DNA of 64,000 nt from Mycobacterium phage prophiT37-1, in the sequence record OQ417969.1; one strand, 5' to 3'. Positions within the stretch are counted from its first letter, which is position 1. Each line of letters opens with the position of its first letter. Position numbers and translations under genes: made by a program. Below the pieces are notes generated by a model. That model ran no database searches, was not told the DNA's origin, and was given only the letters and a program-made list of their open reading frames with translations. This document shows, piece after piece, positions 10,918 through 14,508 of the stretch.

Positions 10918-11121
10918 CTAGCCTTTCTCTGCCTGGATGTTTCGCCGTTCGACCTCGGCTAGGGTTTCGGCTGCGAGCTTGTCGGCCGCTTCGTTGGTCA
11001 GCCGGACTCCGTCGCCGACAAGGAACTCTTCCTTGTCGAGGTCGATGTCGTCGACGACCAGGTCATCGCCGAAGGTGAGGCGCTTGAGGTCGGCTTCGCT
11101 GTGACTGCTCATGAGGGTCAT
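10918..11121 (-). CDS. BrnA-like ribbon-helix-helix antitoxin (putative)
   Basis: 67 aa, acidic. C-terminal VRLTNEAADKLAAE resembles an RHH beta-strand/helix. ATGA overlap with the upstream toxin gene. Confidence 0.45.
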   Translation of the reverse strand: MTLMSSHSEADLKRLTFGDDLVVDDIDLDKEEFLVGDGVRLTNEAADKLAAETLAEVERRNIQAEKG

Positions 11122-11369
11122 TGTGCCCCTCCTTTCCGGTACTTGGTGGGCATGGCGTGGATGCATACCCAGGTCCAGTCCTGGGTGGCGTGTGGGACCA
11201 GGATCAGCTCCAGCTCTACACCGGTGTCGTCGGTGCCTATGAAGTAGAGGCGCCAGATGCCGTCGCGGTTGTCGACGAGCAGCGGCATACCGGCGTTGCG
11301 GAGTGCTGCCATGACGCGGCGCTTGTTGGCGCGCATCCGCGCTTTCGCTGTGAGTGTCACTCTTGCCAT
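11118..11369 (-). CDS. BrnT-like (DUF497) toxin (putative)
   Basis: 83 aa. The pattern GIWRLYFIGTDD...ELILVPHA...WVCIHAMPTKYRK resembles the BrnT ribonuclease toxin fold signature. Gene order toxin-then-antitoxin matches BrnTA. Confidence 0.45.
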   Translation of the reverse strand: MARVTLTAKARMRANKRRVMAALRNAGMPLLVDNRDGIWRLYFIGTDDTGVELELILVPHATQDWTWVCIHAMPTKYRKGGAQ

Positions 11370-11453: not shown

Positions 11454-11783
11454 ATGAAAAGCCTTTATGTAAAACGTATTGCCGTCATTGGCGCCGCCAT
11501 AGCCGCCCTAACGGCACTCCCAACTGCCACCGCTTCCGCGTTCCCCGACCGTTGCCTGTACGCCGCGACAGACGCCAAGACCTGCCTGGGTGCCCGACCG
11601 GCACCCTTCACGCCAGCAGGCGGCGGCGGATACAAGCCCCCGGAGGACCCGGAATGCCCCGAGGGCCAGCACCATCCACCTACAGCTCCTGGCGCGGGCG
11701 AGACTGGAGGTAACAGCGCTGGTAGCGGGTCTGCCGGTAGCGGTGGGTCCTCGGCGAGTGGAGGGGCTGGTACCGGACGGTGA
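11454..11783 (+). CDS. secreted Gly/Ser/Pro-rich protein
   Basis: Signal-peptide-like N-terminus (VIGAAIAALTALPTATASA) followed by low-complexity G/S/P sequence. Confidence 0.45.
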   Translation: MKSLYVKRIAVIGAAIAALTALPTATASAFPDRCLYAATDAKTCLGARPAPFTPAGGGGYKPPEDPECPEGQHHPPTAPGAGETGGNSAGSGSAGSGGSSASGGAGTGR

Positions 11784-11837
11784 TGGTCGCGGCTACCGAG
11801 CGGCTATACAGCCAAGCCCCAATCCTGTTGCCGCACC

Positions 11838-11855
11838 GCTATACCGCGGTATAGC
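11838..11855. promoter_or_regulatory. everted 18-bp perfect palindrome GCTATACCGCGGTATAGC upstream of the ncRNA array
   Basis: Same half-sites as the 16-bp motif but in CTATAC...GTATAG order. A second CTATAC lies in a GGCTATACAGCC hairpin at 11802-11813. Confidence 0.45.
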
Positions 11856-11886
11856 TTCGTTTACAGACAACAAAACAGCGGACGAC

Positions 11887-12010
11887 GTGAACAGGATGCA
11901 GGTCGGTTATCTCGGGGTACGCCCCCGTAGTTCAAGTTAGAACGCCCCGAGCCAAGCGGGGAAATGGATCCAAACCCGCCCAGCGCCAACCACGTTCACG
12001 TCGTTCCCCA
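11887..12010 (+). ncRNA. Y-RNA-like repeat unit 1 (degenerate)
   Basis: Shares the 5' motif GTGAACAGGATGCAGGTCGGTTAT and the 3' ...CACGTTCAC tail with units 2-6. Internal hairpins present but no clear T-arm. Confidence 0.35.
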
Positions 12011-12036
12011 GACCACAACTACATAGACACCAGGTG

Positions 12037-12168
12037 GTGCGAGCAGGACGCAGGTCGGTTACCACTTGCTAATGGAGAGGTCGCGGGTTCGAGTCCCGCC
12101 AGCCAGCCCCCGGCTGTAGCTCAGTTGGCAGAGCGCTAAACCCCGGTCAGCACACACACGTTCGCCCC
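12037..12168 (+). ncRNA. YrlA-like Y RNA unit 2 with circularly permuted tRNA-like module
   Basis: 5' GAGCAGGACGCAGGTCGGTTACC. T-arm GCGGGTTCGAGTCCCGC. Closed acceptor-like stem CAGCC-loop-GGCTG. TA then D-arm GCTCAGTTGGCAGAGC. 3' CCCCGGTCAGCAC + ACACACGTTCGCCCC. Element order T-arm then acceptor then D-arm is the reverse of a genuine tRNA. Confidence 0.55.
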
Positions 12169-12197
12169 ATCACCAACACAACTCCATACATAACAAG

Positions 12198-12330
12198 GTG
12201 TGAACAGGACTTCGTTCGGTTATCTCCTTTCCTGAGAGAGACGCGGGTTCGAATCCCGCCAGCCGCGAAAGTGGTTGTAGCTCAGTGGCCTAGAGCGCTA
12301 AAACCCGGACGACACCCACACGCTCACACC
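12198..12330 (+). ncRNA. YrlA-like Y RNA unit 3
   Basis: T-arm GCGGGTTCGAATCCCGC, closed stem CAGCC...GGTTG, D-arm GCTCAGTGGCCTAGAGC. The 5' GUUCGG and 3' CCGGAC motifs show a compensatory change relative to GGUCGG/CCGGUC in other units. Confidence 0.55.
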
Positions 12331-12364
12331 ACCTCAAACACCAGCAGACGCAGGCGCGCAGGCG

Positions 12365-12500
12365 GTGTGGACAGGACGCAGGTCGGTTACCAAAACAGTC
12401 AGGTGTGGGTTCGAGCCCCACCACCTCGCTCGCGGGGTGTAGCCCAATTGGTAGAGGCAATTGTCCATATACGCCGGTCAGCACTCCACACGCCCACACC
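12365..12500 (+). ncRNA. YrlA-like Y RNA unit 4
   Basis: 5' GTGTGGACAGGACGCAGGTCGGTTACC. T-arm GTGGGTTCGAGCCCCAC. Closed stem CACCTC...GGGGTG. D-loop-like AATTGGTAGAGG. 3' GCCGGTCAGCAC. Confidence 0.5.
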
Positions 12501-12531
12501 ACCTACGCGCACGCACGACAGACAACCCGAT

Positions 12532-12650
12532 GTGAACAGGACGCTCGGTCGGTTATCACTCAATTGGTTAATGCAGGTTCAAGCCCTGTCGCCCGCACCC
12601 AGTGCGGGTGTAAAAGCGAAATCCCGGTCAGCACACACACGTTCACATCA
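12532..12650 (+). ncRNA. YrlA-like Y RNA unit 5 (variant order)
   Basis: 5' GTGAACAGGACGCTCGGTCGGTTATC. D-loop-like AATTGGTTA, T-arm-like GCAGGTTCAAGCCCTGT, long hairpin CGCCCGCAC-CCA-GTGCGGGTG. 3' CCCGGTCAGCAC + ACACACGTTCAC. Confidence 0.45.
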
Positions 12651-12671
12651 CCCGCCCAATAGCCCCCGCGG

Positions 12672-12750
12672 GTGGCACGAGCAGGATCGCAGTCGGTTAC
12701 CCCACCCCTCGCAAGGATGACGAACCCCGGCCGCCCTTCACACGTTCGCG
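12672..12750 (+). ncRNA. Y-RNA-like repeat unit 6 (short, degenerate)
   Basis: 5' GAGCAGGATCGCAGTCGGTTACC and 3' ...TTCACACGTTCGCGCC motifs only. Very short body. Ends about 30 bp before the Rsr RBS. Confidence 0.3.
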
Positions 12751-12780
12751 CCGCCCGCACCTCTAACAAGGAGATGCACG

Positions 12781-14508
12781 GTGGACGTTCTCACCACTAT
12801 CGGAACCCGTAAGACGCCGCAGTCGCAGCAGGCGGACCCCCGGCAGGTGAAGAACTCCGCCGGTGGCTACACCTTCACCATCGACGACGAGGCCCTGCTG
12901 CACCGCTTCCTCACCCTCGGCACCGACGGCGGCACCTACTACACCAACGCCGCCGAACTCACCAGGGACACAGCGGCCGTCGTGCTCCGCGCAGCAGCGG
13001 CCGACCCGGTCCGCCTCGTCCAGCACATCGTCGAGGTGTCCGTGGATGGACGCGCACCTCGGCAGAACCCGGCCCTGTTCGCCCTCGCCATCGCCGCAGC
13101 AGCAGAGGACGTCGACGGCCGCCGCGCCGCCGCCGCAGCCCTGCCCACGGTCGCCCGTACCGGCACCCAGCTCTACACGTTCGTCAAGTACATGGAGCAG
13201 TTCCGCGGGTGGGGCCGCGCCATGCAGCGCGCCGTCGGTGGCTGGTACCTCGACAAGCCCGTCGACCGCCTCGCCTACCAGCTGGTCAAGTACCGGCAGC
13301 GCGAAGGTTGGATGCACCGAGACCTCCTACGCCTGTCCGGCCCGACCACCGCGGACCCGGCCCGCCGCCTCGCCTTCAACTGGGCGGTCGGCAAGGGCCT
13401 GAACGACTACATTGGCAAGGTCCAGCCCCTCACCGCCGAGCAGTTGAAGGCAGGGGAGCGCAACGCCTCCCGGCCCAAGCTGCCTAACGTCGAGCTGGCG
13501 GTTGACCACCCCCTGGCGATCATCGAGGACTTCGAGGACGCCCAGCGCGCCACCCAGCCCAAGGAATGGGTGAGCATCATTCGACGCGGTAACGGTCTTC
13601 CCTGGGAAGCGCTGCCCGACGTCGCGCTCAACTTCACGGCCGTGTGGGAAGCGCTGATTGAGCACGGGTTGCCGCAGACGGCTTTGATGCGCCAACTGCC
13701 TCGTTTGACCCGGCATGGAGTCCTGCATGGTGAATATCTGGACCGTGTCGTAGCTCAGCTCCAGGACGCCGACCGTCTACGCAAGGGCCGCGTCCACCCG
13801 GTCAACGTCCTGATCGCGCAGCGCACCTACGCGTCCGGGCGGTCGGCGCGCGGCGACTCCACCTGGACGCCGGAACGCAAGGTCGTGGACGCCCTGGACG
13901 CCGCGTTCTACAACGCCTACGGAGCGGTAGAGCCGTCGGGCGAGCCGTCGGGCAAGCGCACCTTGCTGGCGCTGGATGTGTCCGGCTCTATGGGCGCCGC
14001 TATCTCGGGTATGCCGCTGACATGCCGCGAGGCCGCAGCCGCACTCGCACTCGTCACCGCCAACGTCGAGCCGGACCACGAGGTCGTCGGCTTCACTGAC
14101 GGCCGTCAGGCCGCGCGCTCGGGCTACGGCTACCGGTCCCAGCACCTCATCACCCCGCTGGACATCACGCCGCGCCGCCGCCTCGACGACGTGTGCCGGT
14201 ACACCGCCGGACTCAGCTTCGGCGCCACCGACTGCGCACTCCCGATGCTGTGGGCACAGCAGTCCAAGCGCGAGTTCGACACGTTCGTGGTCATCACCGA
14301 CAACGAGACCTGGTTCGGCGACGTCCACCCGAACCAGGCGCTCCGCGACTACCGCAACAAGATGGGCATCAACGCCCGCCTGATCGTTGTCGGCATGACG
14401 GCAACCCGCTTCACCATCGCCGACCCCGCCGACCCCGGCCAGCTCGACGTATCCGGTTTTGACACGGCGGTACCACAGTTGATCTCGGACTTCTCGGCCG
14501 GACTGTAG
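12781..14508 (+). CDS. rsr: Ro60-like RNA-binding protein Rsr (TROVE domain + C-terminal vWA/MIDAS)
   Basis: GTG start with aaggagatg RBS. TROVE-like N-terminal and central region. C-terminal vWA with MIDAS motif LLALDVSGSMG. Sits directly downstream of the Y-RNA-like array. Confidence 0.8.
   Translation: MDVLTTIGTRKTPQSQQADPRQVKNSAGGYTFTIDDEALLHRFLTLGTDGGTYYTNAAELTRDTAAVVLRAAAADPVRLVQHIVEVSVDGRAPRQNPALFALAIAAAAEDVDGRRAAAAALPTVARTGTQLYTFVKYMEQFRGWGRAMQRAVGGWYLDKPVDRLAYQLVKYRQREGWMHRDLLRLSGPTTADPARRLAFNWAVGKGLNDYIGKVQPLTAEQLKAGERNASRPKLPNVELAVDHPLAIIEDFEDAQRATQPKEWVSIIRRGNGLPWEALPDVALNFTAVWEALIEHGLPQTALMRQLPRLTRHGVLHGEYLDRVVAQLQDADRLRKGRVHPVNVLIAQRTYASGRSARGDSTWTPERKVVDALDAAFYNAYGAVEPSGEPSGKRTLLALDVSGSMGAAISGMPLTCREAAAALALVTANVEPDHEVVGFTDGRQAARSGYGYRSQHLITPLDITPRRRLDDVCRYTAGLSFGATDCALPMLWAQQSKREFDTFVVITDNETWFGDVHPNQALRDYRNKMGINARLIVVGMTATRFTIADPADPGQLDVSGFDTAVPQLISDFSAGL

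Follow-up and report, generated by a model that had tools for sequence, protein, structure and literature searches.

YrlA-like RNAs adjoin Ro60 in 254 bacteria and 22 phages, mycobacteriophages included (Chen et al., 2014; PMC4201824). In Mycobacterium smegmatis the Ro60 orthologue Rsr binds the RNAs YrlA and YrlB, with Ro60 contacting the 5' strand (PMC4201824; bioRxiv 10.1101/312249), and Ro60 of the Thermus phage phiLo joins two upstream Y-like RNAs (Yrl1 and Yrl2) and the host PNPase in a RYPER-like complex (PMC12135203). We have analysed the 64,000 nt stretch of Mycobacterium phage prophiT37-1 held in record OQ417969.1 (the window; positions are counted from its first base, and the strand presented is denoted +). 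At 11882–12760 it contains an unannotated tandem array of six YrlA/YrlB-type bacterial Y RNA genes just 5' of an rsr gene, in which a GGUCGG/CCGGUC-type pairing forms an RNA helix under selection, read on the + strand and part of a constant module common to all unit types. The kind of system is already known, since YrlA-like RNAs beside phage Ro60 have been published (PMC4201824; PMC12135203).

The six tandem units are 92–157 nt long and are separated by spacers of 18–29 nt that are rich in A and C and poor in G. They are listed here with the gene that follows them; bit scores come from R1, a covariance model derived from the five longer units of the window, or from R2, which is R1 with its nine inner-helix pairs removed.

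11882–12004, + strand: unit 1, a Y-RNA-like gene with outer stem, inner helix and small apical hairpins, without a D arm; its MFE fold is part of the evidence
12034–12171, + strand: unit 2, a YrlA-type Y RNA with the full tRNA-like module
12197–12330, + strand: unit 3, a YrlA-type Y RNA (121.7 bits with R1), singled out in a preliminary description of this DNA; its minimum free energy (MFE) fold contains the helix
12354–12510, + strand: unit 4, a YrlA-type Y RNA with a tRNA-like module (110.6 bits with R1)
12529–12649, + strand: unit 5, a Y-RNA-like gene with a T-arm-like and a second hairpin, without a D arm (98.2 bits)
12669–12760, + strand: unit 6, a short YrlB-like unit without a tRNA-like module (36.4 bits with R1, 39.6 bits with R2)
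12781–14508, + strand: rsr, the Ro60 orthologue (575 aa), with TROVE and vWA_Ro60 domains and PDB matches

The rsr reading frame starts 20 bases 3' of the array end, behind an AAGGAG ribosome-binding site (12769–12774). Its product has the domain plan of Ro60/Rsr proteins, a TROVE domain (the HEAT-repeat ring; PF05731, 5.8e-47) followed by a C-terminal vWA domain (vWA_Ro60, PF25045, 2.2e-63, both in Pfam). Its PDB matches include Deinococcus radiodurans Rsr (2NVO, 2.8e-101) and the Ro60 entries 9NEN (4e-98) and 1YVP (1.2e-97), and its PHROG match is phrog_850, RNA-binding protein. Array and rsr share the + strand and the units lie less than 4 kb 5' of rsr, the proximity by which YrlA genes are recognized. 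Mycobacterium phage prophiGD43A-5 (MW584167), which belongs to cluster MabK and is a prophage of Mycobacterium abscessus, matches the window at 97.5% identity; there the rsr counterpart is annotated as 'Ro-like RNA binding protein' and the repeat region carries a sole annotated feature, 'tRNA-Thr(tgt)'. Ro and Y RNAs go unmentioned in the paper on that prophage (PMC8092301).

The YrlA and YrlB genes of M. smegmatis resemble the array in lying 5' of rsr on the same strand and in their long 5'/3' stem (Chen et al., 2014, RNA 20:1715). YrlA is like units 3 and 4, with a permuted tRNA-like module and a 7 bp acceptor-like stem, and YrlB, the short partner RNA, is like unit 6. The prophage array differs in its six units as against two characterized ones, in being prophage-borne, and in its outer motif, which reads ACAGGACG where mycobacterial chromosomes have GCCGGACG. 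Cluster C mycobacteriophages (ET08/Bxz1 type) and other Ro60 phages likewise place Y-like genes just 5' of Ro60; the Bxz1 unit (locus L107 in our collection, 2191–2335) is matched by both models, with 64.5 bits for R1 and 86.7 bits for R2. Bxz1 and Myrna have one or two units with a canonical GCCGA(A/G) motif, whereas the prophage has six; phages of the Bxz1/Myrna type are lytic myoviruses, whereas the prophage is temperate and resides in M. abscessus.

The preliminary description reported that a 5' GGUCGG pairs with a 3' CCGGUC in units 2, 4 and 5, and the motifs read directly as it described, with 6 bp on the + strand in each case (12053–12058 with 12143–12148 in unit 2, 12381–12386 with 12474–12479 in unit 4, and 12547–12552 with 12624–12629 in unit 5, which has an extra bulged C on the 5' side). 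It also reported GTTCGG (12214–12219) facing CCGGAC (12305–12310) in unit 3, where the second pair indeed turns from the G-U of units 2, 4 and 5 into U-A. Two units that it did not list add to the picture. In unit 1, GGUCGG (11901–11906) faces CCGCCC (11976–11981), with G-C at the second pair and one U·C mismatch next to it; in unit 6, AGTCGG (12691–12696) faces CCGGCC (12727–12732), the outermost A and C standing opposite each other. The three flanking pairs of unit 3 differ as well (UUC/GAC as against GCA/AGC), with a C-G pair becoming U-A and an A·A mismatch becoming C-G.

The double change in unit 3 had been read as the signature of a selected helix. Taken by itself, a lone double change between paralogues that are ~70% identical is not significant (we estimate ~0.03 per pair, over ~18 stem pairs). 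Across both stems of the five longer units, two-sided changes occur at 6 of 18 pairs compared with 2.1 ± 1.1 after shuffling, a level reached in 3 of 500 shuffles, and sliding the partner strand by 1–3 columns gives 0–2. A single double change among six paralogues is weak evidence; together with the homologues described below the argument becomes decisive. Folding of single units is an unreliable guide, and covariation was relied on for this reason: units 2 and 4 misfold around the helix, whereas the helix is present in the MFE folds of units 3, 5 and 6.

Homologous loci were collected by their Rsr relatives and comprised 23 loci from viral contigs, 80 actinobacterial genomes and several annotated phages (Sparky, BearBQ, Bxz1, Myrna, Forza and Targaryen); 354 records of the phage collection encode an Rsr relative. 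A search with R1 found 281 units in 100 sources, typically 2–7 per locus and nearly all a few hundred bases 5' of rsr on the same strand. The window's own unit 2 is its top match to this model (131 bits), and unit 1 scores 79 bits with R1 and 57.6 bits with R2. The 150 best matches, 127 of them distinct units, formed a structure-aware alignment. Because that alignment had been fitted to a model containing the helix, and was to this extent circular, the helix-less model R2 was built; run on a set of 97 sources with less redundancy, it gave 231 hits at E ≤ 1e-4 and a blind alignment of 149 distinct units from ~95 loci. An alignment-free tally of the base before TCGG and the base after CCGG was usable in 81 of the 127 units, the anchors being ambiguous in the other 46, and was for that reason replaced by the blind model; its counts (AT 24, GC 24, GT 23, TA 8) agree with the alignments. 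The statistics came from shuffling, from slid-register controls, from a contingency table and, on a neighbour-joining tree, from parsimony counts.

In the structure-aware alignment the pair that changes in unit 3 reads GU 47, GC 38, AU 32, UA 9 and other 1. Its neighbours covary strongly (one reads CG 61, AU 26, UA 20, UG 11), and the core pairs U·G, C-G, G-C and G-C are nearly invariant. The blind alignment gives the same picture for this pair, with GC 48, GU 39, AU 38, UA 17 and 7 other (unpaired); a 3' A faces only a 5' U (17/17), a 5' G never faces A or G, and the mutual information is 0.58 bit. Standard pairing over the inner helix reaches 92.3% in the blind alignment as against 76.6% in shuffled controls, none of 500 attaining the observed value, and falls to 17–50% when the 3' partner is moved by 1–3 columns. 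RNAalifold predicts 8 of the 9 inner-helix pairs de novo from the same alignment. On a neighbour-joining tree made without the helix columns U-A is spread over at least six distinct clades, which include the window's prophage lineage, several chromosomal groups and the Gordonia phage Forza. The condition that the preliminary description gave for its own refutation, homologues in which the two motifs vary without complementarity, was checked on these sequences, and complementarity is clearly kept.

The helix also has a strand. Read on the + strand it is 92.3% paired and on the – strand 72.8%, because conserved G·U and U·G wobbles pair in one direction only; a DNA-level repeat is therefore excluded, and the transcribed strand is the rsr strand. 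The blind pairing, the de novo prediction and this strand bias together bear out the proposal of a selected RNA helix. The opposing view is that the units are DNA-level repeats (iterons, recombination sites or protein-binding inverted repeats), or else a structured 5' leader that regulates rsr translation. It could draw on the position of the tandem units, immediately 5' of rsr on the same strand, and on a scan that detected no promoters or terminators between them. We find this view scarcely credible. The wobbles are mismatches in DNA and on the other strand, the sequence of the flanking pairs shifts freely while complementarity is kept, and the homologous RNAs are stable and Rsr-bound in M. 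smegmatis (PMC4201824). The DNA-level form was rejected on the ground that pairing is wobble-dependent and strand-specific.

The helix had been described as a terminal one that closes each unit, and here the alignments lead elsewhere. Every unit is closed by a further, outer helix of at least 9 bp, and the GGUCGG/CCGGUC helix is the inner of two, separated from the outer one by an asymmetric internal loop. The outer helix is 94–95% paired and 8 of its 9 pairs covary, even more than the inner helix does. With 92% pairing in the latter, the 5' and 3' ends join into the long stem that characterizes YrlA. In unit 3 the 9 bp outer stem pairs GGUGUGAAC (12197–12205) with GCUCACACC (12322–12330); the internal loop has AGGAC (12206–12210) as its 5' strand and ACACACAC as its 3' strand; and the inner helix pairs UUC+GUUCGG (12211–12219) with CCGGAC+GAC (12305–12313) and is followed by UUAUC (12220–12224). 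The outer stem of unit 1 is a perfect 11 nt inverted repeat (11882–11892/11994–12004), and that of unit 4 is lengthened to 17 nt (12354–12370 with 12494–12510, again an inverted repeat). Unit 6 retains the outer stem, the internal loop, the inner helix and UUACC. Minimal homologous units of ~70 nt, which have no tRNA-like part, also keep outer stem, loop, inner helix and UUAYC, and we therefore assign the inner helix and UUAYC to the constant stem module. The core of the inner helix hardly varies among the 149 units: C22 is found in 148/149, G23, C237 and G238 in 149/149 each, and the U·G wobble in 140/149.

The best full-length alignment to the Rfam YrlA model, that of Gordonia polyisoprenivorans, makes the outer stem the first helix of the model and the inner helix the second, with a conserved (C/U)UA directly after the second. 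By this alignment, the inner helix is predicted to correspond to helix 2 in Salmonella YrlA, which lies beneath the conserved UA and forms the foot of the anticodon-stem-like connector. Salmonella Typhimurium YrlA (RF02553; PDB 6CU1) shares the overall plan of Rsr-binding stem, connector helix, UA, T arm, acceptor-like hairpin and D arm. It differs in several respects. The window's units and Gordonia polyisoprenivorans score below threshold with Rfam YrlA (28–45 bits as against 69); the Rfam YrlA consensus is mostly variable in helix 2, whereas Actinobacteria and phages have the invariant UCGG/CCGG on both strands; the array units have an extra CCAC-loop-UGG hairpin after UUA; and the Salmonella RNAs lie 3' of rsr in an rtcBA operon context, whereas the array lies 5' of rsr. 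Metazoan Y RNAs (RF00019) and D. radiodurans Yrn1 are likewise Ro60 partners with an end-paired, bulged stem, an internal loop, an upper stem and a variable loop. Metazoan Y RNAs, unlike units 2–4, are without a tRNA-like apical module, and the inner helix takes the position of their upper stem, not of the Ro60-binding lower stem.

In units 2–4 the apical module has the T arm (GCGGGUUCGA(G/A)UCCCGC) first, then an acceptor-like hairpin, closed and 5–7 bp long, then UA and last a D arm (UAGCUCAG...GAGC). These elements lie at 12083–12099 (T arm), 12100–12116 (hairpin) and 12119–12134 (D arm) in unit 2, and at 12243–12259 (T arm), 12260–12277 (a 7 bp acceptor-like stem with a GAAA loop) and 12280–12296 (D arm) in unit 3. 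All three helices of the module covary, and units 2, 3 and 4 show the permuted arrangement of YrlA. A segment of unit 2, UUACCACUUGCUAAUGGAGAGGUC, is near-identical to the M. smegmatis YrlA region covered by the published 5' probe UUACCACUUCUAAUGGAAUGGUC (PMC4201824). Units 1, 5 and 6 have no complete tRNA-like module and are YrlB-like; units 1 and 5 carry other hairpins instead. The Y-RNA-like nature that the preliminary description gave to the units is supported by these features. In a relaxed scan, Rfam YrlA (RF02553) matches units 2, 3 and 4 with 38.9, 28.5 and 28.1 bits (E 9.5e-07 to 1.2e-03); at Rfam gathering thresholds the whole window gave zero matches. The metazoan-type Rfam Y_RNA model (RF00019) has zero matches at E ≤ 10 within 11700–12900. 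Gordonia polyisoprenivorans, a species in the original YrlA description, itself scores only 45.2 bits, and since it too is sub-threshold the Rfam cut-off seems to miss actinobacterial members generally.

Some signals in the array do resemble tRNA. The sole match of the Rfam tRNA model reaches 40.3 bits (gathering score 29) on a composite at 12110–12267, in which the acceptor/D-arm side comes from unit 2 and the T-arm/acceptor side from unit 3, a 99 nt insert occupying the anticodon position; the match arises because the acceptor-like stems are paralogous between units, and it is consistent with the published proposal that dimeric tRNAs gave rise to YrlA. What prophiGD43A-5 has annotated as 'tRNA-Thr(tgt)' corresponds to the 5' half of unit 2 (locus L001, 4181–4259; MW584167, 26001–26079; window ~12030–12109). 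ARAGORN reproduces the call in that prophage and not in the window, where the CCAC-loop-UGG hairpin has one extra base and a loop of 8 nt as against 7 nt; the annotation is very likely spurious.

It might be argued from the composite match, the ARAGORN call on half of unit 2 in prophiGD43A-5 and the proposed dimeric-tRNA origin of YrlA (bioRxiv 10.1101/312249) that each unit is a tRNA gene, or the decayed form of a tandem (dimeric) one, and that the paired motifs are functionless remnants of tRNA stems. This is very improbable. ARAGORN, which would be expected to call canonical tRNAs with their standard-order cloverleaf and anticodon arm, finds no tRNA gene in the window; all units have the T arm 5' of the D arm, which is a permuted order; the non-tRNA stems covary and are conserved better than any other part, and both are kept in units 1, 5 and 6 without a tRNA-like core; and the tRNA-Thr call hinges on a 1 nt difference in a loop. 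A tRNA array was rejected on the permuted T-before-D order and the lack of tRNA calls in the window.

Placement of the Rsr site was approached from the definition of the motif, from the units of related phages and from the alignment to the Rfam model. The 5'-strand motif assigned to Ro60 recognition is GGUCCGA in vertebrates and GNCGAAN0-1G in YrlA (PMC4201824), and in bacteria the Ro60-recognition helix is conserved on its 5' strand only (PMC4201824; bioRxiv 10.1101/312249). In related units GNCGAAN0-1G sits at the junction of outer stem and internal loop, 8–12 nt 5' of the inner helix. The junction reads GCCGAACG in Myrna, GCCGAAG in Forza, GUCGAACG in Targaryen and GGCCGAGAG in Bxz1, and the match is complete in the first three (in context, Myrna GGGCCGAACG, Forza GGGCCGAAG and Targaryen GGGUCGAACG). 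The Bxz1 sequence GGCCGAGAG is almost equal to GGUCCGAGAG of Xenopus Y3. Chromosomal mycobacterial units, with GCCGGACG, keep 5 of the 6 specified positions. Over the 149 units the junction consensus is G-R-G-C-M-G-G-A (GAAC-AGGA in the window); its C invariably forms a pair with G, M (C or A) is left unpaired in the manner of the bulged C of vertebrates, and the next G (G11) faces Y255 as GC in 102 and GU in 35 units.

The preliminary description had proposed the GGUCGG/CCGGUC helix as a candidate Ro-binding stem. This is doubtful, with the canonical motif at the outer junction and Rfam mapping the helix in question to the second position; on these alignments the assignment was probably misplaced by one helix, and the inner helix is probably not the Ro60 site itself. 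The alternative, in which this helix would be where Rsr binds the Y RNAs of Actinobacteria and actinophages, or would form an indispensable part of that site, nevertheless has several observations to build on. UCGG/CCGG with the following UUAYC forms the most invariant positions of the constant module, the inner helix is kept in the minimal units devoid of a tRNA-like part, GGUC is similar to the first bases of GGUCCGA in vertebrates, and the canonical outer motif is degenerate in the window's units. Against this stand the intact GNCGAAN0-1G at the outer-stem/loop junction of related phage units and the layout of that junction, which mirrors the bulged base and G-Y pair (G11/Y255). Moreover, the helix 2 region of Salmonella YrlA belongs to the crystallized effector module (nt 15–93), as the lower 'anticodon stem' under a UA kink, and not to the Rsr-binding module (bioRxiv 10.1101/312249). 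We regard direct binding of this kind as unlikely.

Our preferred reading, which we hold to be likely, is that of six YrlA/YrlB-type Y RNA genes 5' of the prophage rsr, with a constant stem of two helices in which the inner one would serve as a spacer. Array and rsr would be co-transcribed in early lytic growth, judging from the family and from the early lytic position described for the neighbouring toxin-antitoxin pair of prophiGD43A-5, and the transcript would be cut into individual RNAs within the A/C-rich spacers, which are unstructured. Each RNA is predicted to form, from its two ends, a long stem with an outer helix of at least 9 bp, and the 5' strand of the internal loop would carry the Ro60-recognition-type motif. 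Next comes the inner helix, with its invariant core U-C-G-G/C-C-G-G, U·G wobble and freely covarying flanks, then the conserved UUAYC and a variable apical module; this is a tRNA-like domain of permuted order in units 2–4, whereas units 1, 5 and 6 have other hairpins. The Rsr ring would bind the module of outer helix and internal loop, and the inner helix could act as a rigid, stacked spacer by which the apical, effector-binding module is held in a set position towards the ring. In this way the individual units might tether Rsr to different partners, e.g. host PNPase or tRNA-binding factors; by analogy, the RYPER-like complex of phiLo suggests a plausible role for the prophage RNAs.

Several points weigh against this reading. 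The window's units, with ACAGGACG at the motif position, keep 3 of the 6 specified positions of GNCGAAN0-1G, and because the Ro60 motif is degenerate there, placement of the Rsr site by homology is least secure in these very units. UCGG/CCGG is invariant on both strands, U·G wobble included, and exceeds the canonical motif in this; a spacer with a passive role would not require so much invariance, which is a hint of direct recognition. The inner helix is broken in rare units, in unit 1 by its U·C and in unit 4 of prophiGD43A-5 by GGGCGG with a G·G mismatch. The conservation figures carry an ascertainment bias, the units having been gathered by a model that rewards such motifs. Every Rfam YrlA match stays under the gathering score (38.9 bits at the top as against 69). 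The promoter and terminator scan gave zero sigma-70-like promoters and, as the only terminator-like site, a hairpin upstream of unit 1, the number of sites not exceeding chance expectation.

The two-strand conservation leaves room for a further, tentative suggestion, less probable than the spacer reading, that the UCGG/CCGG duplex with its U·G wobble and UUAYC is a second sequence-specific recognition element of actinobacterial and actinophage Y RNAs. Were it so, the contacts of Rsr might extend over the two helices, or the element might be bound by another factor, e.g. a processing nuclease or an effector. If this suggestion is true, six-unit prophage arrays with a degenerate canonical motif would rely mainly on the UCGG/CCGG element.

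Comparison of loci shows how such arrays change. Prophages whose Rsr is ~97% identical to that of the window differ in their arrays: one (locus L010, 1931–2971) has seven units, with a different unit (GUCAGUCGG/CCGGCAGAC) in the slot of unit 3, and another (L006, 2139–2971) has one extra or shifted unit. Whole units are gained, lost and replaced as the arrays evolve. In Promicromonospora and related bacteria, chromosomal loci have two further Y-RNA-like units on the opposite (–) strand, 1.5–2.9 kb 5' of rsr (L040, 1297–1558; L044, 36–301; L045, 296–559; L049, 899–1149; L066, 200–462; L068, 217–491), and also keep same-strand units adjoining rsr.

Upstream of the array, ~30 nt 5' of unit 1, a 7 bp hairpin (GCTATACCGCGGTATAGC) with a T-rich tail occupies 11838–11855, and a direct repeat, CCGAGCGGCTATACAGC, related to the hairpin lies at 11796–11812; the hairpin could serve to terminate transcription from upstream, or could be an operator. 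An open reading frame of 109 aa with a Gly/Ser-rich tail (11454–11783, + strand) has zero Pfam or PHROG matches, and the corresponding stretch of prophiGD43A-5 is unannotated. A few hundred bases 5' of the array, on the – strand and thus opposite in orientation to array and rsr, lie the BrnT-like toxin/antitoxin reading frames annotated in prophiGD43A-5 (window 11118–11369 and 10918–11166). In that prophage the neighbouring toxin-antitoxin pair was placed 'within early lytic genes', and the majority of the prophage is silent during lysogeny (PMC8092301).

MabK-type prophages of M. abscessus thus carry an unannotated six-gene Y RNA array, one unit of which was deposited as 'tRNA-Thr' in MW584167, and the Rfam YrlA threshold misses these prophage RNAs as well as related ones in Actinobacteria. 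The phages known to supply a Ro60 and Y RNA system of their own now include a temperate one whose host is a pathogen of clinical importance, with arrays that diversify the apical (effector) module while the two-helix stem is held constant. The main value of the finding is one of annotation, together with a testable point about conservation, and not a new kind of system: that the core of the inner helix is conserved on two strands offers a testable refinement of the picture of bacterial Y RNA recognition.

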